Origin: Rhodospirillales bacterium
Lineage (GTDB): Bacteria; Pseudomonadota; Alphaproteobacteria; QKFK01; SZUA-500
Assembly (NCBI GenBank): GCA_003252195.1
Contig: QKFK01000141.1
Span: 1-54,941, forward strand
Length of the DNA: 54,941 bases
Direction of reading: 5' to 3'
How positions within the stretch are numbered: the first letter of the stretch is position 1; every line of letters begins with the position of its first letter. Both the position numbers and the translations under genes were made by a program. Shown in pieces: positions 1 to 47,357 of the stretch. Under the pieces are notes generated by a model that was given only the letters and a program-made list of their open reading frames with translations, had not been told where the DNA came from and made no database searches.

Positions 1-830
1 TTAGAATATGAACCAGCAGAAGAAAGCAGCTCAGAACTTTACAACAACGCTCTCAATCTTGATGAGCTAGGGTTAGAAGCCAATAAGATTTTGCAAGGAG
101 AAAGCTCTGAAGTATTAGACGCACTATTAAACCTAAATGGCTCATCTGGTGGTGCAAGGCCCAAAATAGTCGCCCTTGTATCAGATGACAAAAAAAGCAT
201 AATCCACGGCTATGAACATAAAGAAAATTACACCCCGTGGCTAATTAAGTTTGACTCATCATTAGATAAAGAAAACATCGGGCTAATAGAATATTTTTAT
301 TCCATCATGGCAAAAAACGCTGGTATAGAAATGCCAGACACGCATTTATTTCCATCAAAGAACAGCAAAGGGCATTTTGGGGTTAAAAGATTTGACCGTT
401 CTAAAAACGGGAAAATACACATACACACTGCTTGTGGCTTATTACACGCCTCGCACCGCTACCCTACCCTTGATTATGAGAATTTAATCAAACTAACTTT
501 GCGTTTAACTAAAGACGTTAGAGAAGTTGAAAAAATGGTTAGATTAATGTTCTTTAACGTAAAGTCTGGCAATAAAGATGATCATAGCAAAAACTTCTCA
601 TTTATGATTGATGAGCAAAGATGACACCAGCCTATGACTTAACGCCGTCTGAAGGTATCAACGGCGAACAAACAGCAATGGTGAACGGCAAAGGTAGAAA
701 TATAACAGATGATGACCTTATAACCACAGCCTCAATATCTGGCATAGAAACAACCAAACTCAAACACATCATCGCCCAGACCATTGATGCAATCGCTGAT
801 TATGACAAACTAAAGAAAGAGGTTGAATAG
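1..830 (+). pseudogene. hipA: HipA-family Ser/Thr kinase toxin, 5'-truncated by window edge and frameshifted
   Basis: Frame 1 is open from nt 1 and contains GGARPK, GVKRFDR and the catalytic-loop-like GNKDDHSKNFSF, with a stop at 622-624. Frame 3 (621-830) continues with TPAYDL, the motif that normally follows in HipA C-termini. A 1-nt indel in the A-run around 615-621 would fuse the two ORFs. Confidence 0.7.
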
Positions 831-22700: not shown

Positions 22701-22800
22701 ATTAGTGTTCGCAGAGCAGCGAACAGGATAATATAAATAAAGCTCAAGAGTATTAGTAATGTTCGTAGAGCCACGAACAGGTTAATATAAACAAAGCTCA
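22701..22800. repeat. Two tandem ~46-49 nt units, each with a 7-bp hairpin (loops AGAGCA / AGAGCC)
   Basis: Unit 1 (22701-22746) has tgttcgc-agagca-gcgaaca. Unit 2 (22752-22800) has tgttcgt-agagcc-acgaaca. A compensatory C:G to T:A change preserves the stem. Both units end in aaagctca. Confidence 0.9.
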
Positions 22801-22816
22801 TATGTACATCTTGCCC

Positions 22817-23105: not shown

Positions 23106-23150
23106 TGGTGCCGACACACGGACTCGAACCGCGGACCCACTGATTACAAA
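23106..23150 (-). repeat. attL: 45-nt copy of the 3' part of tRNA-Thr (anticodon loop to CCA)
   Basis: Identical nucleotide for nucleotide to 47282-47326. The flanking bases differ on both sides. Confidence 0.9.
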
Positions 23151-23289
23151 ACAAAACCACGTATTTCCTTAGTTTTTCATAACATCACACGTACTAAAAA
23201 AGTCTTTTCGTTAACTTTTGGTAACAAAAAGAAACGAAAGGAACCAATCATGACGGAATAATTTTTCTGAACTTTTAAGCAAAATAAAT

Positions 23290-23330
23290 GCGAGGTTTGC
23301 AGACCTCGCATCTCATATAAACTAGTGCGC
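23290..23330 (+). other. Candidate oriT (inverted repeat plus MOBQ-like nick-region core)
   Basis: Hairpin gcgaggt-ttgcag-acctcgc (23290-23309), followed 12 nt later by ctAGTGCGCt (23322-23330). This resembles the AAGTGCGC core of RSF1010-type nic sites. It lies upstream of mobC/relaxase. Confidence 0.35.
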
Positions 23331-23442
23331 TAACACCAATCTGAATAACAATTAGATTGTAATGTATTTTTGCAACCAAAATCAAGGATTATTTTCTACA
23401 AAAATATATTGGTGAGCACTTATCCAAAAAAGGGTATATAAG

Positions 23443-24405
23443 ATGAAAAAGATAAGTGATTGTAACATCCACCTAAATTTAGGCAAAAGAGACGATACAG
23501 AAATAAACAAACAAATTACTAAATTAAAGGCAAAAGTTTCTGACCTACCACCAAACCAACTAGAACTACTTAAAAGCATGCTTTTCTCTGGAAAGATAAC
23601 AGAAATCATTGAAGAAAGCACCCCTGGCACAGTAATACATTTAATCATTTTGTTAATGTTCGTGGGTTTTCAAGACTGGAAGAATGGCCAAATTACCACA
23701 TATACATCACAAAAACTTCTTGCCGAGATTGAAGGGTGCTCGATAGAAACTATAAGAAAAAGACAAAGAGAGTTAGAACGTCTAGGGCTCTCTTTTGCAC
23801 ATTTTGATCATCAAAACCACCCTGCTGGCAATGAAGCCATAGATTTAACCCCTATTGCACTACAGTATTCCGAACTTAGAAACAAGGCAGAAGAAAAAAC
23901 TCAGGCACGAGAAAGAGAGAGAAAAGAACATCTCACATCAACTACCGAAGCTCTTTTCAATAATAATTGGGGAGCCCCCCAAGAAAAATTGGGACATATA
24001 CTATATACTAAAGATACTAGTAAATTTAAAAAAGAAAGTGAAATTGCTTTAAAGGAAGAAAAACTCAAAACCCAGCAATCTTATTCCAAGCAGAAGCAAA
24101 TATCTCCGTCTTCAAAAGAAATGATCCAGATTATATCTAAGCTCTCGCCAGAAGCTAATGATTGGGATACTGACATATTGGAGCGGATATACAAACAAAG
24201 GCTATATGTTAGCGATAGTGCTTGGGAAATAGCGAAATCAAGACATAGTCAACTCACAAGACTGGCTATTTTACTGGTGTCTCTCGTGCGATACGGCATC
24301 AAGAACCGAACATCATTTGCAGAAAGCATGCTCATGAGGAAGGATATTAACATCTGGATAACAGCAGGCAATCTAGCTGATAAGGGGGTGTGTTATGCAG
24401 CTTAA
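23443..24405 (+). CDS. Hypothetical DNA-binding (HTH-like) protein, possible replication or regulatory protein of the element
   Basis: IEGCSIETIRKRQRELERLGL is a wHTH-like segment. It is the first gene of the mobC-relaxase operon and overlaps mobC by 11 nt. Confidence 0.4.
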   Translation: MKKISDCNIHLNLGKRDDTEINKQITKLKAKVSDLPPNQLELLKSMLFSGKITEIIEESTPGTVIHLIILLMFVGFQDWKNGQITTYTSQKLLAEIEGCSIETIRKRQRELERLGLSFAHFDHQNHPAGNEAIDLTPIALQYSELRNKAEEKTQARERERKEHLTSTTEALFNNNWGAPQEKLGHILYTKDTSKFKKESEIALKEEKLKTQQSYSKQKQISPSSKEMIQIISKLSPEANDWDTDILERIYKQRLYVSDSAWEIAKSRHSQLTRLAILLVSLVRYGIKNRTSFAESMLMRKDINIWITAGNLADKGVCYAA

Positions 24406-26443: not shown

Positions 26444-28159
26444 TCATACTTGCCATATTTCCTTTGATAGCTCATAAAGCTCCAAGATTCTATCATTTAT
26501 TCTACTCTCATTCCATTCTTCATAAGACAAACACTCATCAGAAATATCAAGACCTGCCGCAAACTTCTTAAGACCACCATGCTTCAAATTTCCTTCCAAT
26601 TTTATATTCCAACTAGAATCTCTTATTGATGAGTTAAGAGAGCATGTAATTATCATAAGATTTCCAAGCTTTAGCAATAAGCGATCTCTTTCATTAGCCT
26701 GCAGTTCATTTAAATTATCACCCCAATTATTACGCCATTTCTTCGGCATCATATGCTCTAAGCTATAACTGTTTATTGGCAACAGACTTGTAGAATGTAG
26801 TTTATCATTTCTAACACTAAGCTCCATTATATACAAAACCAGCCTAGCCTGTTGATTTGTAAGGTTATTTTCAAAAAACGCCTTATAAAGCTCATCATTA
26901 TCAGGGAATTTATTTGCAATATCACCAAAATTAAACAATTCTTTTTTTAAAGCATCAAGTGAAAGCACTTCTTTTCTAATTAATTTTGCAAATAAATTAT
27001 TGTAGTCCTTATTAGTTTCCTTGCAAATCAACCTACGCATCAGAAAAGATTCTAAATGCATAAATATTCCATTTTTTTCATCATCATCATCAATATTTTT
27101 AACAACATACAAAATATAAGGAACAATAGTTGTTATACCTAAAGAAAATATAATGAGATTAAGCCTATCCAAACGACTGTTTTTATCAACATCAGAAAAT
27201 ATAATATTCTTATTAATGTTCTTTCTGTATAGATTTGCATAGTTGACGAGATCATATATAAACTCATCCTTAGTTTCTTTACTTTCGTATATACGATAAT
27301 CCCTCATATATTCCTTGTAATTATAAAACAAACTATCAAGTCCTATATATTTCTCTTTAGCCCCGCTCTTTATTAAAAGATAAGACTGTAACAACAAGTC
27401 TATATTAACACGATATAGTCTTCCACTTGTAAGCTCCATATCCCAAAACGACCTAATATCCTCATCCCCCTCAAAGGCTTCCTTCCATGTCTTTCCATAT
27501 AACTCTTCATCCTTTCTTTTGAATAGTTCATTCTTCAAAAGCTCTGCTGTTGTTAGAGATACGCCCAAAGAGTTTATAGTATCAAAAATTTGCTGTTCAT
27601 CTTCAGTTTCAAATAGATCGATCACAACGAAGTATAAATTATTTAGAATAACATCTTCTTTTATTTCTCTGAGAACGTCTTTTTTAGTTAAAAAATAGTT
27701 ATAACATAACAGTATATTATTGCTTTTATATTTATTAGTTAAGTCATCAGATAAATTACCATCAAGTATAGCTTCAAATATCTCAATATCATTGTGATTA
27801 TGTAATATTTTTAGATTGTTACCTTCTTTATTTAGCAGATTTCTAAAATTAAAATCAAAAAATTCACCAATATCTTTTATATTACAAATAACTTTAAACA
27901 TTAGAAGTAGTGTTGTTAACCGTTGTTGACCATCAACTATATTTCTATAGTCTCCAGTACAATTAGATGGTGTGCACCTTTGTTTTAGTATAAGAGACCC
28001 CATAAAATGCTCTCTTTTATTATCTGAAACATATCTAACATCATCTATAAATCTTGACCAATTTTTATCAGACCAAACATAACTTCTTTGAAAGAAGGGG
28101 ATTTCCAATGTTCTGTTATTGGTAAACACCTCATTTATTTTTCTCTTTCCAACATCCAC
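26444..28159 (-). CDS. DUF262/DUF1524 (GmrSD/BrxU-like) putative type IV modification-dependent restriction enzyme
   Basis: N-terminal IPFFQRSYVW and DGQQRLTT (DUF262). C-terminal SLEHMMPKKW ... GNLMIITCSLNSSIRD (DUF1524 His-Me-like). Confidence 0.75.
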   Translation of the reverse strand: MDVGKRKINEVFTNNRTLEIPFFQRSYVWSDKNWSRFIDDVRYVSDNKREHFMGSLILKQRCTPSNCTGDYRNIVDGQQRLTTLLLMFKVICNIKDIGEFFDFNFRNLLNKEGNNLKILHNHNDIEIFEAILDGNLSDDLTNKYKSNNILLCYNYFLTKKDVLREIKEDVILNNLYFVVIDLFETEDEQQIFDTINSLGVSLTTAELLKNELFKRKDEELYGKTWKEAFEGDEDIRSFWDMELTSGRLYRVNIDLLLQSYLLIKSGAKEKYIGLDSLFYNYKEYMRDYRIYESKETKDEFIYDLVNYANLYRKNINKNIIFSDVDKNSRLDRLNLIIFSLGITTIVPYILYVVKNIDDDDEKNGIFMHLESFLMRRLICKETNKDYNNLFAKLIRKEVLSLDALKKELFNFGDIANKFPDNDELYKAFFENNLTNQQARLVLYIMELSVRNDKLHSTSLLPINSYSLEHMMPKKWRNNWGDNLNELQANERDRLLLKLGNLMIITCSLNSSIRDSSWNIKLEGNLKHGGLKKFAAGLDISDECLSYEEWNESRINDRILELYELSKEIWQV

Positions 28160-32409: not shown

Positions 32410-35400
32410 ATGACATTTAATACAGAAAAAGAATTTGAAAATGCATTTATAGCTCTCCTTACAACAAAAGGCTGGGAATCTGAGGTTATTTATAATCCAA
32501 CAGAAGAACAACTAATTCAAAATTGGGCAGATATCCTTTTTAATAATAACAAAGAAATTGATAGATTAAATAATCAAGCTCTAACTGATGGTGAGATGGC
32601 TCAAATTGTTGAACAAATAACGGCTTTAAAAACTCCTCTAGCCCTCAATGGCTTTATCAATGGCAAAACTGTTACAATAAAAAGAGATAATCCAAATGAC
32701 ACCTTGCACTTTGGCAAAGAAGTTAGCTTAAAAATATATGACCGTCACGAAATTGCTGCAGGGCAAAGTCGTTATCAAATTGTTAGCCAACCACAATTCA
32801 AACGACAATCACCTCTTGCTCATGACCGCAGAGGTGATGTTATGCTACTGATTAATGGAATGCCAGTTATTCACATAGAGCTGAAAAAAAGTGGTGTTCA
32901 TGTTAGTCAAGCTTACAATCAAATAGAAAAATACTCATCAGAAAGTATTTTTACTGGCTTATTTTCTCTTATTCAAATTTTTGTAGCAATGAATCCTGAA
33001 GAAACTCTTTATTTTGCCAATCCAGGACAAAATGGTATATTCAACAAGGATTATTATTTCCATTGGGCAGATTTCAATAATGAGCCAATAAATGAATGGG
33101 GAAAAGTTACAGTTTCACTCTTATCAATTCCGATGGCACATCAATTAATAGGTTTTTATACCGTTGCTGATAACGGCGATGGACTATTAAAAGTTATGCG
33201 TTCTTATCAATATTATGCTGCTAATTCAATTTCTGACAAGGTTGCAAAAATAGATTGGAAAGCAAAAAATATTTATGGCGGTTATATTTGGCACACCACA
33301 GGAAGTGGTAAAACAATGACTAGTTTTAAGTCAGCTCAGCTTATTGCTAGCTCAAAAGATGCTGATAAAGTTATCTTTTTAATGGATAGGATAGAACTTG
33401 GCACTCAGTCATTAAAAGAGTATCGTGGCTTTGCAAATGATAATGAAACTGTTCAAGCAACAGAAAATACAATCATTTTAATCAATAAATTAAAAAGTGG
33501 TTCACCCCAAGATACTTTGATTGTAACCTCTATTCATAAAATGAGCAACATTCAAGAAGATGGTCTAAACACAAAAGATATTGCAAAAATGAACTTAAAA
33601 AGAATAGTGTTTATTGTGGATGAGGCTCATCGTTCCACCTTTGGAGATATGTTAATTAATATTAAAGATACGTTCCCAAATGCAATATTTTTTGGCTTTA
33701 CTGGCACCCCAATTCAAGATGAAAATGCAAAAAAAGATCATACTACTGCAACGGTCTTTGGAGACGAGCTTCATAAATATACAATTGCCGATGGCTTGCG
33801 TGATAAAAATGTGTTAGGTTTTGACCCTGATAAAATTCTTACATACAAAGATAAAGACCTAAGAAAAGAAATTGCTTTGCTAAAATCCAAAGCGAAGACA
33901 GAAGTTGAAGCTCTTGCCAATCCTCAAAAAGCCGCAATTTATCAAAAATATATGGATAGTAATCAAATTAAAATGTATGGCTATCAAACAGATAAAGGGG
34001 AATATATAAAAGGTATTGAAGATTACGTTCCCACAGCTCAATATGAAAGAGAAGAACATCAAAATATAGTTGTAACAGATATCTTAGATAACTTTTTAAG
34101 ATTAAGCCGTAATAAAAAATTTCATGCCATTTTTGCAACATCTAGCATCAAAGAAGCAATAGAATATTATCGCCTTATAAAACAGAAACAACCAGATTTA
34201 AAAACAACAGCTCTTTTTGATCCTAATGAAAATAACGAAAGACCATCAAAATTTAAAACAGATGGGATTATTGAAATATTAAGCGATTATAACAATAGAT
34301 TTAATCAAAGGTTTGAGCTTGCAACTCATGGAAAATTTAAAAAAGATATTTCATTGCGTATGGCTCATAAAGAATACTACAAAAACATAGATCCAGATAA
34401 GCAGTTAGACTTATTGATTGTCGTTGACCAAATGCTAACAGGCTTTGATTCTAAATGGGTAAATACTTTATATCTTGATAAGAAGTTAGAAAATGAAGGA
34501 CTTATTCAAGCATTTTCTAGAACCAACCGCCTATTCAATCAACATGAAAAACCTTTTGGAATAATTAGATATTATAGATACCCACATACAATGGAGCAAA
34601 ATATTCAAAAAGCCCTAAAACTATACTCTGGAGATAAGCCATTAGCACTATTTGTTGATAAGCTAGAACAAAACCTTATAAAAATGAATGAAGTTTATAA
34701 TGAGATTTTTAACCTATTTGAATGTGCTAAAATACAAAACTTTGAAAAATTGCCCGATGATAATTCAGAACGAGCAAAATTTGCAAAACTATTCAAGCAA
34801 TTTTGTAATCATCTGGAAGCTGCCAAAATTCAAACATTTGTTTGGGAAAAGCTAGAATATAAATTCTCAAAAAGAGTTATTAAGCTCAATCTTGATGAAG
34901 CAACTTATTTAACTCTTCTACAACGTTATAAAGAACTATCAAAAGATACTGGTGGCGGTCAATACAATGATGTTGCTTTTGATATTGATGGTTATTTAAC
35001 AGAAATTGATACAGATACAATTGATTTTGATTATATGAACTCTCGTTTTGATAAATATCTTAAAAATTTATCATCTGCTGATAAAGATGAAATAAAATCA
35101 GAATTACATAAATCTTTTGCTATTTTATCACAAGAAGATCAAAAATATGCAAATATCTTTTTACATGACATCGAGTGTGGTAATATTGTTTTAGAAAATA
35201 GCAAAACCTTGAAAGACTATATTACCCAATATAAATACACTGCCGAAGAAAAAAGGATTGATAAGATTGTAGATGCTTTAGGCGTTGATAAAACTTTATT
35301 AAAAGCAATGCTAAACACAGGTATTACAAAAGCAAATATCAATGAATACGGCAGGTTTAATAATTTAAGAGAAAGTGTTGATAAAAACAAAGCAAGAGAA

Positions 35401-35505: not shown

Positions 35506-35580
35506 CAACATATACAACGAAAATGCTATAACGAATGATACTTTCAATGATTTAATTTTAGAGTAAAAAAAGGTAACTGT

Positions 35581-35711
35581 ACGGCATCGGAACAAGTGGG
35601 ACAAACTAGGATGTATTGTTAAGGTGTAGTTTTTGGTTTATCGTAGTGACTGGAAGGAACGAAGATGAACAAAAAACTACATAAGAGCGAGCGTAAAGCG
35701 ATAGCTAACAG
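35581..35711. repeat. Right arm of the ~130-bp inverted repeat
   Basis: Reverse complement of 26282-26411 (~88% identity). Confidence 0.9.
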
Positions 35712-35958
35712 ACTCATTAGGCGAAATATTTTTGACCAATTCTGAAAGATTTTTTCGATTTGCGCAATGTTCATATTTTAATCTTCCTTCTGGTTTTGGG
35801 CTTTTTCTATCCTCTAATGTTATGAAGATAGAAAATAATTGAAATTGAATAAAAAGACAAGTAGATTGAATAAGTTTTGAAAGCTATGCCTTACAAAATA
35901 TTTTAAGGTATCTTAATTGTGTTGGATCATGCAATAATATAAAACATTGAGAGTAAAC

Positions 35959-38178
35959 ATGCCTGACAAAATAAAGTTAAATCTAGAAAACTGCTATGGC
36001 ATTGGAAAACTAGAAGAAGAGTTGGAATTCAAGCATAAAGGCTATGCGATTTACGCCCCTAACGGCGTAATGAAAACATCATTTGCGAAAACAATGATAG
36101 CGTTGTCTAAGGGCAACAATCCTGAAGATCTAGCTTTTCCAGAGCGCAACACGATTTGCGAAGTAACTTGGAATGATGTCTTTATAAAGAGCGAGGAAAT
36201 ATTTGTTGTCAAATCTTATGACGATAAGTATTCACCAGATGGTGTCTCAACTCTGTTGGCTAATGAAGCCTTAAAGGCTAAATATGAAACGATACACAAA
36301 GATATTGGTGAGGCTAAAAAAAGCTTAGATAAAAGACTACGACATCTAGCAGGTTATGGAGAAAAATCCAGAGAAAATTTAGATCCAATTCTGGAGCGTA
36401 TTTTCAAGCAGCAATACTATGATGCGTTGTTAAGTATAGAATCTGAAATTGATACACTTAAAAAAGAAGATTTTGGCGATGCTGATTATAAAATAATTTT
36501 CAATCAAAAAGTTATAGACTTACTAAAAGAAGACACATCCAAAGCCAATATTGACGACTTTGCTCAAAAATACGATGAGCTTACTGAAAGGTCACCTATT
36601 TTAAGAAAAGGTTTCCAGTACCATCATGTTAACCAAGTTCGTCAACAGTTGCAATCAAACAACTTTTTCGCTGCTGGTCACACTATTAATCTATGCGATA
36701 AAAATGATGGCAAGAAAGAAGAGCTTGCGACAGACTCTTCTTTGCTAAAACGAATTGAGGAAGAGAAACAGCGTGTTTTCAGTGATCCTGATTTAAAGAA
36801 AAAATTTGATACCTTTAACGCTAAGCTAAAAAATAAAGAGTTACAAGATTTCAGGGATTACATTACACAAAACCAACATATTTTACCAGAGTTACAAGAT
36901 CTTGAGGCTTTTGAAAGAAAGCTATGGCTACAGTATCTTTATAGATCAAAAGCAGAATATGAGTTACTAATAGAGAAGTATAAAAAAGGCCAGGTTGAAC
37001 TTGCTAAAATAATTTCTGAGGCCAAAGACAATAGGAATGATTGGGATAATGTTATCGATGATTTTAATCGCCGCTTTTTACACTTGCCTTTTCAGCTTTC
37101 GGTCGAAAATAAAGCGGACGTAATTCTAAAAGATACAGCCCCTTCGGTGGTATTCAATTTTATTGATGGTAAAGATCAACGCAAATACCCAGCCACCCAA
37201 AGAAATGACTTGTTAAATCTCCTTAGTACAGGGGAAGCTAGAGCATTGTATATTTTGAATATAATGTTTGAAGTACACACAAGATGGAATGCTCGTAAAA
37301 AGACGTTGTTTGTTTTTGATGATATTGCAGACTCATTTGATTATAAAAACAAATTTGCAATTATTGATTACCTTGATTACATCATTAAATCTGAAGATAC
37401 AAACTTCATAGCAATTGTTCTTACACATAACTTTGATTTTCTTCGCACTATTGAGAGTAGAGATATATGCCTAGCAAGCCAGTGTTATATGGCACTAAGA
37501 AATCAAGGTCAAATCACATTAACGCCATTCAAGAACCGATCAGATATCAGGAATCCATTCCATAAGTGGAAAAATAGGTTGAATGAAGCAGAAATTCAAA
37601 TTGCTTACATACCATTTCTAAGAAATGTGATTGAATATACGTGCGGAATAAAAGATGAACATGGGGCGGATAACGCAGACTATATAACCCTTACAAATAT
37701 GTTGCATTATAAAGATGAAACAGAAGATTTAAAAATCCAAGATTATAAAAATATTTTTGAGAAATATTTTACAAATCTAACTTTCCCGCAGGTTAATTTA
37801 AGTAAAGATATTTTAGGCTATATAAAAGAAACGGCAGATAATTGCTTAAATCAACAGGATGGAATAAATCTTGAACATAAGATTGTTCTATCGATAGCAA
37901 TTCGTATTTTGGCCGAAAAATTTATGATTGAAAAGATTCGAGGTGTTGAACCAGATTATGATCCTGCACAAAAACAGATGGGTAAATTACTTCATGACTT
38001 TAAAAATAAGTTAAACAACCTGATTGATGATATTAGGCTTTTAAAGAGAATTAATCTAATTACCCCAGCAAATATCCACATTAATGCTTTTATGTATGAG
38101 CCTATTTTAGATATGGGTTTTGGTGAATTAAAGGATCTATACCAAGAAGTTAATGCACGGCAAGCATCCCAACCTTAG
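35959..38178 (+). CDS. ABC-type ATPase of the PrrC/RloC (AAA_13-like) kind with long helical insert and C-terminal R-x3-E...H segment
   Basis: Degenerate Walker A YAPNGVMKTSF, signature LSTGEARAL, Walker B LFVFDDIADSFD and LTHNFDF. C-terminal FLRNVIEY...NMLHY. The ATG at 35959 with a GAGAG RBS is preferred over TTG 35947. Confidence 0.6.
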   Translation: MPDKIKLNLENCYGIGKLEEELEFKHKGYAIYAPNGVMKTSFAKTMIALSKGNNPEDLAFPERNTICEVTWNDVFIKSEEIFVVKSYDDKYSPDGVSTLLANEALKAKYETIHKDIGEAKKSLDKRLRHLAGYGEKSRENLDPILERIFKQQYYDALLSIESEIDTLKKEDFGDADYKIIFNQKVIDLLKEDTSKANIDDFAQKYDELTERSPILRKGFQYHHVNQVRQQLQSNNFFAAGHTINLCDKNDGKKEELATDSSLLKRIEEEKQRVFSDPDLKKKFDTFNAKLKNKELQDFRDYITQNQHILPELQDLEAFERKLWLQYLYRSKAEYELLIEKYKKGQVELAKIISEAKDNRNDWDNVIDDFNRRFLHLPFQLSVENKADVILKDTAPSVVFNFIDGKDQRKYPATQRNDLLNLLSTGEARALYILNIMFEVHTRWNARKKTLFVFDDIADSFDYKNKFAIIDYLDYIIKSEDTNFIAIVLTHNFDFLRTIESRDICLASQCYMALRNQGQITLTPFKNRSDIRNPFHKWKNRLNEAEIQIAYIPFLRNVIEYTCGIKDEHGADNADYITLTNMLHYKDETEDLKIQDYKNIFEKYFTNLTFPQVNLSKDILGYIKETADNCLNQQDGINLEHKIVLSIAIRILAEKFMIEKIRGVEPDYDPAQKQMGKLLHDFKNKLNNLIDDIRLLKRINLITPANIHINAFMYEPILDMGFGELKDLYQEVNARQASQP

Positions 38179-38287
38179 GCCAATCAGTTCACTAACAAAA
38201 CATTCTTTTACTTAAGGAATCTTAATATATGTTTGCTACATATTATTAATGTATACAGAAAAATTAATCTGATTAAGAAAGAATAAT

Positions 38288-38986
38288 ATGAACAAAGAAC
38301 ATTTTAATAAATTTAGTGAATGTATAAATGATTCATTAAAAGAAGAGCAATGGGTTGGCAACAACATAAATAAATGGTGGAAGTGGGTTTCAGCTAAAAC
38401 AGAAACTCAACTACATTGTGACGCGTTACCAAACAATAGATTAACAAGAAAAGAACTAAAATCTTTATGCAGTAACAACAGTGGAGCATCAGATCTAGCT
38501 TGCTCTATTGCGATTATGGCTTGGGGTGGTCAAAATAGAAATCACGGCATAACTCTATTTAATAGATTTGATGAAATCAAGCCCATTATTAAGGATATGA
38601 GAAAAGGAAACATAAATCATATAGAAGCTTATAAGCAATTTTATAAAATATGGATTGCCGAAAAACCATTAGGCATGGGAGCCGCATATTTTTCCAAGCT
38701 AATATTCTTCTGTGAACCAAGCCACAAAGGCTACATAATGGACCAATGGACTTCAAAATCTATAAATATGCTTACAAATGAACCAATAGTCCATCTCATA
38801 TCTAATCATGTTAGCAACAAAAACACTGATATAACATACTCAACGTTCTGTAATACAGTAGATAATATTGCACAAACTCTAGGATATAAAGGCGAAGAAA
38901 TAGAAATTGCAATGTTTTCTAAAGGTGGACGCAACAAATGGCAATGGAGGGAGTATGTGTGTAATAACTACAACAAACAAACATAA
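38288..38986 (+). CDS. Hypothetical 232-aa protein (possibly a helix-hairpin-helix/OGG-fold-like protein; unverified)
   Basis: Segments IMAWGGQNRN and GMGAAYFSKLIFFCEP...YIMDQW recall glycosylase-fold proteins. Lies 110 nt downstream of the ATPase. Confidence 0.3.
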   Translation: MNKEHFNKFSECINDSLKEEQWVGNNINKWWKWVSAKTETQLHCDALPNNRLTRKELKSLCSNNSGASDLACSIAIMAWGGQNRNHGITLFNRFDEIKPIIKDMRKGNINHIEAYKQFYKIWIAEKPLGMGAAYFSKLIFFCEPSHKGYIMDQWTSKSINMLTNEPIVHLISNHVSNKNTDITYSTFCNTVDNIAQTLGYKGEEIEIAMFSKGGRNKWQWREYVCNNYNKQT

Positions 38987-38999
38987 TTGACTTTCGACC

Positions 39000-39270
39000 C
39001 TTTTGTGGGGCAAGTACTCTTGCTTGCAATGAGTGTTTGACACTTATAATTTGAGATTAAAAATATCCTAATAATTAACATTTCAATATTAGGACTTACC
39101 CACAAAAGTAGGTATTAAAAACATTGTTCCTCAGGGTTAAAAAGTCATCATTAAAACATATTATTATATGGTTTAAGCTGGTAAACATTTAGCAAGATAA
39201 ATTAATAAGAATATATTTGTATCCCCTCTTACTTTTATAGGTTGCAAGCAAGAGTAAGTGGGGTACAAAT
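39000..39270. repeat. Nested inverted repeats (MITE-like or structured RNA)
   Basis: cttttgtggg (39000-39009) pairs with cccacaaaag (39099-39108), and cctaata (39067-39073) with tattagg (39087-39093). A 15-nt perfect IR, tactcttgcttgcaa (~39015-39029), matches ttgcaagcaagagta (~39242-39256). Confidence 0.8.
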
Positions 39271-39457: not shown

Positions 39458-39492
39458 TAGATGAACCTAAACATAACATATTTTAAATAACA

Positions 39493-39654
39493 TAACAAGA
39501 AATTGTTACTTCCTGAGCTTTGCGTAACAAAAATCTGTTATATTCTAATAAAAAATCACAAAATTCTGTTATGTTGACGTCAATTAATAACAAATATTTG
39601 TTATATTTTGCTAATTCATAACACTTTTTTGTTATACATAACAAAAATCTGTGA
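39493..39654. promoter_or_regulatory. Phased array of six 16-bp palindromes TAACA-N6-TGTTA
   Basis: Sites at 39493-39508, 39525-39540, 39556-39571 (TCACA), 39588-39603, 39619-39634 and 39639-39654 (TGTGA). Start-to-start spacing is 32, 31, 32, 31 and 20 bp. Confidence 0.85.
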
Positions 39655-39694: not shown

Positions 39695-40078
39695 TTAACT
39701 CTTATTCTTCTCGTTTCTTGTCATTTCACGCTTTTCTCTAATGGATTTATCAATTATACCAGCTAGCTTTCTGAAAGTTCTGTCGCTAAGTTTTCTGAGG
39801 CCAGAATCAGCCCAATCATCTCCAAAATAACATCTTAAATCGTTAAAGTCCTTAAACCTATCCGTTGATGGGATAACCTCTTCAATAATGTATCTTTCCA
39901 TAAGATGCCCTAAATTTTCTTTACGACACCATCCGTTTTCAATGATTTGCACCATCAAAGCACCGAGTAGCTCATTCTGCCTTTTCTCACGAGCAACATT
40001 CTCACTTATGACTTGCTCTTTAATCGCCAGAACCTGTTTATCAATAGCATCTAATGGTGCTTCAAAGTCATCTGACAT
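39695..40078 (-). CDS. Hypothetical 127-aa protein
   Basis: ORF with a GGAGG-like RBS (aaaggagggg) upstream. No recognisable motif. Confidence 0.5.
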   Translation of the reverse strand: MSDDFEAPLDAIDKQVLAIKEQVISENVAREKRQNELLGALMVQIIENGWCRKENLGHLMERYIIEEVIPSTDRFKDFNDLRCYFGDDWADSGLRKLSDRTFRKLAGIIDKSIREKREMTRNEKNKS

Positions 40079-40112
40079 AATTTCCCCTCCTTTTAACTTG
40101 GTTATCTTTGAA

Positions 40113-40147
40113 TTTTCAAGGAACCTATATATAAGATTCCTTGAAAA
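40113..40147. promoter_or_regulatory. Perfect 11-bp inverted repeat operator overlapping a TATATA box upstream of orf127
   Basis: ttttcaaggaa (40113-40123), 13-nt spacer, ttccttgaaaa (40137-40147). The spacer is cctatatataaga. Confidence 0.6.
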
Positions 40148-40358
40148 TGCTTATTCTAGCCGCAAATATTATCTCATTTTCTGGTGGGTTATTTCCTGAA
40201 CCCTGCCATTTAATTGATGCATATCGCTATCAATTGAGCTTAAATGTGAGTTTATTGAAAATAACTGAGCTAAGCATAGTATTGAGGCTACAGCTATTAC
40301 CAATATTGCAACATTACGAATTTTATCTGACATCTTTACCTCATATCTGAAAATAATA

Positions 40359-45507: not shown

Positions 45508-45522
45508 ATAAAAAATACACCA

Positions 45523-45625
45523 TGTGGGAAATCTTAAATTTTCTACATAGAACAAAAAAGCAGATGCATCAACTTTTACATGTGGGAAAACAGCATTTTC
45601 CCACATAATCTAGAGATTTCCCACA
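45523..45625. promoter_or_regulatory. Four TGTGGGAAA boxes (two direct, two inverted) upstream of xis/int
   Basis: Direct copies at 45523-45531 and 45581-45589, inverted copies at 45597-45605 and 45617-45625. The middle pair forms the palindrome atgtgggaaaa-cagc-attttcccacat. Confidence 0.7.
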
Positions 45626-45688
45626 TTTACAAGGGATTAAAACAGCCCTAGCCTAAAAATATACGTTGATTTTTTTAGGAGTGCTTAG

Positions 45689-45916
45689 ATGGCAAAACAA
45701 GATAATTATTTAAACCAGAAGCAAGTTATCGATTTGATGGGAATAACTAAAACAACATTTAATCGGAATCTTCATAAATACATATATGCTGGAATGCCTG
45801 CAAAAATAGATCTTATTGGCAAATGGAATAAGACTGATATAATAAAATGGCTTAAAAGTCAGAATTTTTCTATTCCGCATGATCCTTTTATAGAAAAGGA
45901 GATTAGCGATGAGTAA
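45689..45916 (+). CDS. AlpA/excisionase-family small HTH protein
   Basis: LNQKQVIDLMGITKTTFNRNL. AGGAG RBS. Overlaps the integrase start. Confidence 0.7.
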   Translation: MAKQDNYLNQKQVIDLMGITKTTFNRNLHKYIYAGMPAKIDLIGKWNKTDIIKWLKSQNFSIPHDPFIEKEISDE

Positions 45917-47120
45917 AATTAAACTACCTACAAATGTTATAAAAAAGGTCACTAAAAGTGGGACATACCTCTATTGGGTTGCACCAAAAAAAGATGTGTA
46001 CCAAGGTTTTAAAGCGAAAAGTTGCCGACTACCAGACGACAAGTTTTCTATGAACAAAATGGCTCATGAATTAAATCTAGAACTTGAAGAATTTAGAAAT
46101 CAAGATACTTTTTGTTTAGTTGGTGATGTTTTAACCAAAAATCCAACTTTTCAGAATGTTATAGATTGGTTTAAAACAACTGCTGAATTCACTACATCCA
46201 TAGAAGAAAAGACCAGAAAAGACTACATATACAGCCTAAATAGATTTTTAGACACACAAGTTCCGTGGAGAAACAACAATACAATTTCAGAGATTAGAGT
46301 TACTTCATTTGTTCCTGGCGAAGCATTAAGAATGAAAAACCTATTACTACAAAATTGCTTGTCAGGATCTGGTGAAATACAAACGAACAGAATTCTGGCA
46401 ATTGCAAACAGAGCTTTAAATCTAGCAGAAGATTTTGATGTTATAGAAAGCAATCCATTCAAAAAGGTAAAGAATTTTAGAGAAAACACGCGTAGTAGAT
46501 TTGACGAAAGTACAATTTTTACGAAAGATGATATTGATAAATTAGTATATTGCTCTGACAATAATGGATACCATGAATTATCATTAGCAATATTGCTGGC
46601 AAACCACCTGTGTCAACGTATGGGGGATGTTGTAAATAGCATAAAAAAATCATCCATTAAAAACAACTTTGATACAATTGAGTTCATCCAAAACAAGACA
46701 AAGAAGCATGATACTCACCCTCGTATTTTCCCATTAAAAACTCCAGGTGGAAAAGAAATATTCCCAGACCTGCTACCAAGGATAAAAGAAATGTTTTATC
46801 TGCATAATTTAGACACATTAATAGCCTATAAAAGTAAACATAGCGGAGAATATATTAAATACAATACAGACCTCGTACGCAAGCATTTCCATAAAGTACG
46901 TAAAATAGCTGGTGTATCAGAGGCAAAGAAATTCATGCATTTCAGATCAAGTGGTTTAACTGCTATGGCAAAATGTGGTTGCGACCAACAAATGTTGTTA
47001 AACTACTCAGGACACAAATCTATTAAAATGCTTGATAGATATGTTAAATCAGACACGTCGCAAACCATTCTTGGAGCAATGAAACGATTTCACCCTGAAA
47101 GGCTAAACGACGAGGTATAG
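45909..47120 (+). CDS. int: Tyrosine site-specific integrase
   Basis: C-terminal catalytic region MHFRSSGLTAMAKCG...LLNYSGHKSIKMLDRYV (HxxR ... GH ... Y). Lies adjacent to the tRNA attachment site. Confidence 0.85.
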   Translation: MSKIKLPTNVIKKVTKSGTYLYWVAPKKDVYQGFKAKSCRLPDDKFSMNKMAHELNLELEEFRNQDTFCLVGDVLTKNPTFQNVIDWFKTTAEFTTSIEEKTRKDYIYSLNRFLDTQVPWRNNNTISEIRVTSFVPGEALRMKNLLLQNCLSGSGEIQTNRILAIANRALNLAEDFDVIESNPFKKVKNFRENTRSRFDESTIFTKDDIDKLVYCSDNNGYHELSLAILLANHLCQRMGDVVNSIKKSSIKNNFDTIEFIQNKTKKHDTHPRIFPLKTPGGKEIFPDLLPRIKEMFYLHNLDTLIAYKSKHSGEYIKYNTDLVRKHFHKVRKIAGVSEAKKFMHFRSSGLTAMAKCGCDQQMLLNYSGHKSIKMLDRYVKSDTSQTILGAMKRFHPERLNDEV

Positions 47121-47281: not shown

Positions 47282-47357
47282 TGGTGCCGACACACGGACT
47301 CGAACCGCGGACCCACTGATTACAAATCAGTAGCTCTACCAACTGAGCTATGTCGGC
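47282..47357 (-). tRNA. tRNA-Thr (anticodon UGU), 76 nt with encoded CCA
   Basis: The reverse complement reads GCCGACATAGCTCAGTTGGTAGAGCTACTGATTTGTAATCAGTGGGTCCGCGGTTCGAGTCCGTGTGTCGGCACCA. It has a 7-bp acceptor stem, anticodon loop TTTGTAA and a TTCGAGT T-loop. Confidence 0.9.

Follow-up and report, generated by a model that had tools for sequence, protein, structure and literature searches.

The central finding of this analysis is an array of six 16-bp palindromes of the form TAACA-N6-TGTTA at positions 39493-39654 of the 54,941-nucleotide stretch of DNA examined here (the window), and the conservation pattern within these sites suggests that they almost certainly constitute a protein-binding platform. 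As to its function, we tentatively propose, at a probability somewhat below even, that a dimeric helix-turn-helix (HTH) protein would use the platform as a cooperative multi-operator and so gate a neighboring 6A/TenpI-like RNA gene. We infer protein binding, the position of the promoter, the repressive direction of the effect and the identity of the binder alike from the sequence.

A pattern search returned exactly the six sites listed in the original prediction, four perfect and two with one half-site mismatch each. The perfect ones are site 1 (TAACAAGAAATTGTTA, 39493-39508), site 2 (TAACAAAAATCTGTTA, 39525-39540), site 4 (TAACAAATATTTGTTA, 39588-39603) and site 5 (TAACACTTTTTTGTTA, 39619-39634), the latter with an A/T-rich centre that is inverted relative to sites 2, 3 and 6; site 3 (TCACAAAATTCTGTTA, 39556-39571) deviates in its left half-site, TCACA, and site 6 (TAACAAAAATCTGTGA, 39639-39654) in its right half-site, TGTGA. 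The start-to-start steps are 32, 31, 32, 31 and 20 bp, as described earlier, with gaps of 16, 15, 16 and 15 bp among sites 1-5 and a gap of 4 bp between sites 5 and 6, where the 20-bp step corresponds to about two helical turns. Once the flanking bases are included, the consensus lengthens to 18 bp (ATAACA-N6-TGTTAT), and the half-site centres within each palindrome are 11 bp apart around an A/T-rich centre. The array also has a symmetry of its own: its centre, between sites 3 and 4, is the perfect 10-bp palindrome TTGACGTCAA (39574-39583), and sites 2 and 3 together with sites 4 and 5 form a 48-nt imperfect inverted repeat. The GC content of the array is 22.5%, its AT-richness being uniform and hence uninformative. 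Two side observations concern the spacers. The sequence TGACGTCA has five copies in 2.27 Mb, one of them at the exact centre of the array, where our own estimate from composition would give about 25 copies; avoidance of GACGTC as a restriction target may account for this scarcity. The spacer that separates site 1 from site 2 reads GAGCTTT (39515-39521), i.e. AAAGCUC on the minus strand; the 6A units carry this sequence as a conserved 3' motif, and the copy in the spacer may be the leftover of a third unit.

The array is far from chance by a wide margin. Perfect TAACA-N6-TGTTA sites number 12 in the whole 2.27-Mb assembly compared to approximately 8 expected from base composition, and the array holds 4 of these 12. 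Sites with at most one mismatch number 146 genome-wide, and in the whole genome pairs of such sites closer than 70 bp occur in the array only; by our own arithmetic, these counts give a Poisson estimate of about 1e-10 for finding six of them within any 162 bp of the genome. Likewise, the density of TAACA/TGTTA pentamers is 12 per 200 bp at the array versus 7 in the next densest 200 bp of the genome. Because seven of the eight perfect sites outside the array lie within ORFs, there is no sign of a regulon in the host. The proposal that the sites lie on one face of the DNA holds as well: the steps are close to whole helical turns, and the six site centres share one phase (0,.05, 0,.05, 0 and.9 at 10.5 bp per turn, all within 0.1 turn), an arrangement reached in about 6 of 10,000 Monte Carlo trials with random spacings (P ~6e-4).

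Identity between the units is 96% in the half-sites, 45% in N6 and 36% in the spacers, with a composition expectation of 33%. Half-sites this conserved beside spacers near the composition level argue for selection on the sites and against a young tandem duplication, and a recent tandem duplication is excluded by spacer identity at the random level; the comparison of the units shows half-sites and a spacing that have been retained while the remainder drifted. The architecture (conserved half-sites, random spacers, half-site centres 11 bp apart, a single face) and the uniqueness of the motif in the genome fit the original prediction of a cooperative platform that would bind a dimeric protein. 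The binder would most likely be of the HTH type.

The array is located within a 708-bp gap between the end of a plus-strand OGG-like gene (38986) and the end of minus-strand orf127 (39695), and we agree with the earlier description of this gap as convergent and intergenic, next to a hairpin-repeat locus and with no protein gene behind the array. On the minus strand, the order is orf127 (40078-39695), the array (39654-39493), two tandem 50-51-nt 6A/TenpI-like RNA units (39456-39407 and 39406-39356), which are the presumed regulated target, and the terminator of this RNA gene (39350-39295), a long hairpin followed by a U-run, in which the stem covaries with the copy on contig C78 of the same assembly. 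One of the two units matches the Rfam family 6A (RF02925) with 31 bits and E = 9e-4, which is under the gathering score of 41.2; both have near-identical counterparts in a four-copy array on contig C78, and a third 6A locus at 22701-22806 scores above the threshold. A leader (39466-39458) pairs with 39359-39351 and in that way encloses both units, and the segment 39475-39285, comprising leader, units and terminator, has a fold z of -4.5. Given that the closing stem starts at 39466, the transcript would have to start at or upstream of approximately 39466, i.e. at the proximal edge of the array or beyond.

A predicted sigma-70-like promoter on the minus strand (39509-39480) consists of GTAACA (39509-39504), an 18-nt spacer and TAAAAT (39485-39480). 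In agreement with the original prediction, its -35-like hexamer overlaps site 1; two additional ATAACA half-sites (39473-39478 and 39487-39492) lie on either side of its -10-like hexamer, and the RNA start estimated from the -10 position is near 39473. This is the sole sigma-70-like match inside the array and a weak one, agreeing with the consensus at 9 of 12 positions, and shuffled sequence yields such matches at least as often. Since the interval from orf127 to the RNA units was found to have no terminator, read-through is also possible. Two other 6A loci in the genome are without such an array, and 6A RNA in general thus does not need one; a search for 6A loci in 150 genomes of the class gave one weak match only.

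Type III toxin-antitoxin (TenpIN) loci have the layout promoter, antitoxin repeats, terminator and toxin. The locus beside the array resembles them in having two tandem repeats of about 50 nt and a terminator beyond the array and differs from them in that no toxin gene follows: between the RNA units and the convergent OGG-like gene, no minus-strand ORF of at least 60 aa was found. With repeats and terminator present and the toxin gene missing, we reject membership in the TenpIN toxin-antitoxin loci. TenpI repeats have a mean length of 50.9 nt and a mean of 2.2 copies (PMC3401426), and the unit length (50-51 nt) and copy number (two) found here fit these statistics. A further difference is that a six-operator array in front of a type III toxin-antitoxin promoter is without counterpart in the type III toxin-antitoxin papers searched, PMC3401426 among them, in which operators at such promoters are not mentioned.

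Combining the geometry of the sites with the order of the elements on the minus strand, we suggest that each 16-18-bp palindrome (ATAACA-N6-TGTTAT) would take one dimer and that, by virtue of the three-turn (31-32-bp) and two-turn (20-bp) steps, all six dimers would be placed on one face, where neighboring dimers may touch or, alternatively, about 160 bp of DNA may wrap around an oligomer. Counted from the predicted start of the minus-strand two-unit RNA gene, the platform would cover about -20 to -180. With site 1 on the -35-like hexamer and half-sites flanking the -10-like hexamer, occupancy would shut the promoter off, and the occupied array would probably also block read-through from the co-oriented upstream orf127. 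Of the three roles proposed originally, a multi-operator repressing the promoter of the small RNA fits best in that the array is directly upstream of the RNA units and has the half-sites, one turn apart and on one face, of a repressor multi-operator; the part of the proposal that concerns the promoter itself depends on the weak match described above.

The array resides on a mobilisable island that takes up about 24 kb of the window. A tRNA-Thr gene (47282-47357, minus strand) has a copy of its 3' part at approximately 23108-23150, and a tyrosine integrase (45909-47120) is preceded by an AlpA-like 75-aa ORF. At the other end, the island encodes a Rep-like 320-aa protein (orf320), a NikA-like protein and a MobA/VirD2 relaxase. 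Between the ends are GmrSD, a complete type I restriction-modification (R-M) system and a PDC-S46 ATPase with its OGG-like partner, and the other ORFs encode small envelope proteins or are ORFans. The 743-aa ATPase (in the region 35947-38986) matches the PADLOC candidate defence family PDC-S46 with E = 1e-237 and also phrog_38705, and the OGG-like (PF21790) protein that follows it has widespread homologues (80 clusters at E <= 1e-10). A near-identical OGG-like fragment (P0043) was dismissed as an artefact, being a loxP-joined chimeric contig. The 1096-bp contig L116 (ENA ERZ926216) contains pieces that are 100% identical to window positions 38552-38925, 32703-32845 and 26790-26905, and given that these are joined by loxP sequences, the contig is a library or assembly artefact rather than a variant locus.

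Beyond the window, contig C78 (reverse-complemented) appears to abut its left end: C78 carries an N-terminal piece of hipA, the last 48 residues of which (C78:1-144) match window positions 1-144 at 100%, in a 5'-open frame that extends to 624. If the two contigs abut, a four-unit 6A array and a hipB(HTH_3)-hipA module would lie about 1 kb upstream of the window, and three 6A loci would fall within about 67 kb. In addition, CTGTACGSCATCGGAACAAGTGGGACAA of the inverted module flanking the defence cassette (35570-35610) recurs beside the 6A array of this contig (C78:1540-1590).

Three binders had been put forward originally, i.e. orf127, the 320-aa HTH protein and AlpA/Xis, and none of them gained support. 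The product of orf127 (39695-40078, minus strand), which is co-oriented with the array and immediately upstream of it, is a 127-aa all-helical ORFan: among about 15 billion proteins no homologue turned up, either by word search or by a full HMMER search of 1.8 billion representatives, and the AlphaFold2 model (all-helical, pLDDT 64) found no fold match in Foldseek, leaving the fold uninformative. Its gene is preceded by a TTCAAGGAA/TTCCTTGAA palindrome. Between orf118 and orf127, a near-perfect inverted repeat, ATTTTCAAGGAA-N13-TTCCTTGAAAAT (40112-40148), may be either the terminator of orf118 or an operator of orf127. The AlpA/Xis-like 75-aa ORF (45689-45916) overlaps the start of the integrase gene; its HTH is visible by eye while Pfam is silent at E<=0.01, and its upstream region (45522-45627) contains four ATGTGGGAA/TTCCCACAT motifs, a palindrome different from that of the array. 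Because the AlpA-like gene and orf127 are both preceded by other repeats, these proteins presumably have other sites.

The Rep-like orf320 (23443-24405) lies 15 kb from the array and has sub-threshold matches to HTH_36 and RP-C; it has one homologue, on a 2.1-kb contig, and a structure model with a pLDDT of 38. Upstream of the gene, the stretch 23282-23386 consists of a GCGAGGT..ACCTCGC hairpin followed by a conserved run and is about 95% identical in a related element (L115:1-110), in which the protein is only 75% identical; this non-coding stretch is probably the oriT of the island, and it carries no array of the kind described here. Among the island ORFs of at least 45 aa, no significant Pfam or NCBIfam match to a DNA-binding domain was found, the 320-aa protein having sub-threshold matches only, and for the other island ORFs, small ones included, Pfam, PHROGs, NCBIfam and PADLOC gave no DNA-binding domain. 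HipB of the neighboring hipBA module was rejected on the ground that its promoter region has a different palindrome, ATAATATATTAT, its sole link to the array being one split site in which TAACAAAAAT and CTGTTA are separated by 10 bp. Candidates for the binder are orf127, another unannotated ORF of the island and a factor that a helper element would provide in trans.

Several other explanations of the array deserve consideration. That it is a functionless relic, arising from a tandem duplication that has since decayed or from chance clustering in AT-rich DNA, is the least probable of all those considered here: a 63-bp two-site unit can be drawn as a direct repeat with 73% identity, and there are no relatives at hand that could show conservation, but a relic does not account for half-sites that are 96% identical while the spacers are random, for a cluster that is the extreme of the whole genome or for phasing at P ~6e-4. 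Only slightly less improbable is a role of the palindromes in RNA, in which each would be a small hairpin unit in the 3' UTR of orf127 or in a longer 6A/TenpI precursor. The continuity between orf127 and the RNA units, with no terminator separating them, would permit such a transcript, the AAAGCUC motif between sites 1 and 2 is shared with the 6A units, and shuffled versions fold less well than the array RNA of the minus strand (z = -3.3); this value, however, follows trivially from six mutually complementary palindromes, and the hairpins, with only five mostly A-U pairs and a 6-nt loop, would be too weak for stability. Moreover, the changes in the arms are never compensated (TCACA/TGTTA, TAACA/TGTGA), the array itself has no Rfam 6A match at E<=5 and strict helical phasing is meaningless for RNA. 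We consider it unlikely that the array serves the maintenance of the excised island in cis, whether as a centromere-like site of the sopC/parC type or as an initiator-binding or handcuffing array, for which the Rep-like 320-aa protein would be the initiator. Models for the latter kind of array are the lambda ori iterons, which are bound by O dimers, and the inverted-repeat operators of RepE/pi-type initiators. Six palindromes on one face with A/T-rich centres, the low GC content and the dyad about TTGACGTCAA would suit a wrapped complex, no protein gene lies behind the array, and one island protein has weak similarity to RP-C and HTH_36. At an iteron origin, initiator sites lie next to or within the initiator gene together with an AT-rich unwinding region and usually DnaA boxes. 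Here, by contrast, the Rep-like gene is 15 kb away and adjoins an oriT-like region that is conserved separately, there is no DnaA box up to 390 bp from the array (the nearest similar sequence, with one mismatch, is at 39096) and the repeats are palindromes whereas classical iterons are direct repeats, all of which weakens the earlier suggestion of an iteron-type origin. The suggestion of a centromere fares no better, as no ParA/ParB/ParM/ParR-type match was found in the island ORFs of at least 45 aa. The sopC site of the F plasmid consists of near-identical 43-bp repeats next to sopAB; the array resembles it in being a noncoding set of tandem 16-bp palindromes on a mobile element, bound by dimers in sopC and predicted to be so here, and differs from it in that the spacers are unrelated and partition genes were not found.

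It is also very unlikely that the array is a decoy, titration or sensor site for a regulator from elsewhere, such as host NrdR or the repressor of a helper conjugative element or phage, which would couple the island to the state of the host or helper. No cognate regulator adjoins the array and the genome has no second cluster of this kind, as expected for a foreign binder; furthermore, the geometry is exactly that of tandem NrdR boxes, and NrdR is encoded by the host. Specifically, both have 16-bp palindromes with gaps of 15-16 bp (a 31-32-bp period), C at position 4 and G at position 13; the array differs in comprising six sites rather than a pair, in its consensus and in having no nrd gene nearby, and this tandem geometry is also met in unrelated operators. 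The NrdR-box consensus reportedly given by Rodionov and Gelfand in 2005 is acaCwAtATaTwGtgt. The nrd genes of the host are on contigs C139 and C77, outside the window, and its boxes (C77:7900/7933/8018/8050, C139:6212 and C246:22400), which precede nrdD and other genes with steps of 32-33 bp, have 0-3 mismatches to the host consensus ACACWATATATWGTGT. In contrast, no array site is within a 4-mismatch cut-off of ACACWATATATWGTGT, site 3 having 6 mismatches by hand count, and we therefore reject an identity of the array with NrdR boxes. The single DUF4143 gene of the genome has a different upstream motif, which likewise speaks against a regulator from elsewhere and against a host regulon. Finally, a cluster of recognition sites of the type I R-M system was rejected: a palindromic bipartite type I site needs an HsdS with two like target-recognition domains, and the two halves of the island HsdS are 33% identical overall, mostly in a conserved C-terminal stretch. 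With target-recognition domains that are unlike, the site of this HsdS is not palindromic.

Comparative searches returned operators of the same kind but no homologue of the array. DNA similar to the array was found neither in plasmids nor, beyond the hairpin repeats, in 60 relatives, which share only the class and each come from a different family, the lineage being very poorly sampled; there was no homologous array in GTDB species genomes, viral contigs or metagenome contigs. The search of related elements proposed originally thus yielded none that carries the array, leaving it without comparative support. In a scan of GTDB with one genome per species for two perfect sites 14-17 bp apart, we found 56 loci, none with more than three sites within 250 bp, and a step of 31 bp dominates. 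At 23 of the 56, AATAACAT-N4-ATGTTATT precedes AAA_14/DUF4143 ATPase genes, and at nine, TATAACAC-N4-GTGTTATA precedes genes for HTH_26 (Cro/C1-HTH) nucleotidyltransferases of about 170 aa. The former pairs have a 31-bp spacing, in many cases with an intervening TTGACA, are located 10-11 bp in front of genes for ATPases of about 385 aa and occur in Elusimicrobia, Omnitrophota, Planctomycetales and others; the latter occur in Oscillospiraceae/Saccharofermentans. At both gene classes (within L005-L060 of the scan), the paired palindromes resemble operators that are conserved and autoregulatory. When viral and metagenome contigs were scanned for three sites, nearly all matches were satellites with an exact period and identical spacers, which are unrelated. 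Two operator-like exceptions stand out: in metagenomic locus L081, three T[AC]ACA-N6-TGT[GT]A sites separate a CI-like HTH_3 gene from a small divergent ORF, and a marine metagenome contig (L100:1416-1590) has six TCTAACAC-N4-GTGTTAGA sites with 31-33-bp steps and variable spacers. The latter array is in GC-rich DNA at a contig end, and the adjoining ORFs are without Pfam matches. The same half-site class therefore serves as operators elsewhere, i.e. in the triple of L081 and in the 31-bp pairs at AAA_14/DUF4143 and HTH_26-nucleotidyltransferase genes. Judged by its sequence, the array is ordinary for HTH dimers in half-site class and spacing, and as a six-site array it is without relative in the collections searched.

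Returning to the multi-operator, one extension concerns the use that the island might make of the RNA. If the RNA is a toxin-less type III antitoxin on a mobilisable island and the array is its repressor-gated switch, which we regard as a long shot, then the RNA would be off in an established host and would be set free by the absence or inactivation of the repressor, e.g. just after transfer or upon induction of a phage or helper, and the released RNA would neutralise a TenpN-type abortive-infection toxin met in trans. Such a system would act against defence through an inducible RNA and would provide the first case of a type III antitoxin promoter under regulation. Independently of this extension, the array stands out as statistically very clean and as the only one in its genome. 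Should it be a real operator array, elaborate transcriptional control can extend to type III antitoxin-like RNAs, and the array would point to a DNA-binding protein so far unrecognised, for which the ORFan orf127 is a possibility; with a binder from a helper element or phage, it would act as a sensing device. At present, the array is a well-defined bait for DNA pull-down rather than a demonstrated system.

Palindromes arrayed in helical phase are the hallmark of cooperative nucleoprotein switches, as in the operators of lambda and 186, pap/Lrp, hipBA and NrdR. In the lambdoid/Xre-type multi-operator regions, represented by OR1-3 of lambda, the ACAA-N6-TTGT operators of 434 and the CI wheel of phage 186, the likeness to the array extends to palindromes of 14-18 bp, half-sites about one turn apart, an A/T-rich centre, placement on one face and overlap with a promoter, which in the array is a predicted one. 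The array differs from these regions in that (i) it has six sites instead of three and spans about 160 bp, (ii) it has no adjoining repressor gene or divergent promoter pair, and (iii) its presumed target is a small RNA gene and not a lysis-lysogeny switch. Phased arrays of the Lrp type include the pap region of Escherichia coli, with six sites three turns apart, and the boxes of Ss-LrpB, and are paralleled by the HipB operators of hipBA promoters. The array shares with them several palindromes at whole-turn spacing, which in the known systems bind an oligomerising regulator cooperatively, the DNA being wrapped or bridged by it, and differs from them in its consensus and in that no Lrp/AsnC or HipB gene adjoins it. 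In kind, the array is a further member of this well-known class of helically phased operator arrays; unusual for such arrays is that they should have, as presumed here, an orphan and antitoxin-like RNA for a target, on a mobilisable island rich in defence systems.
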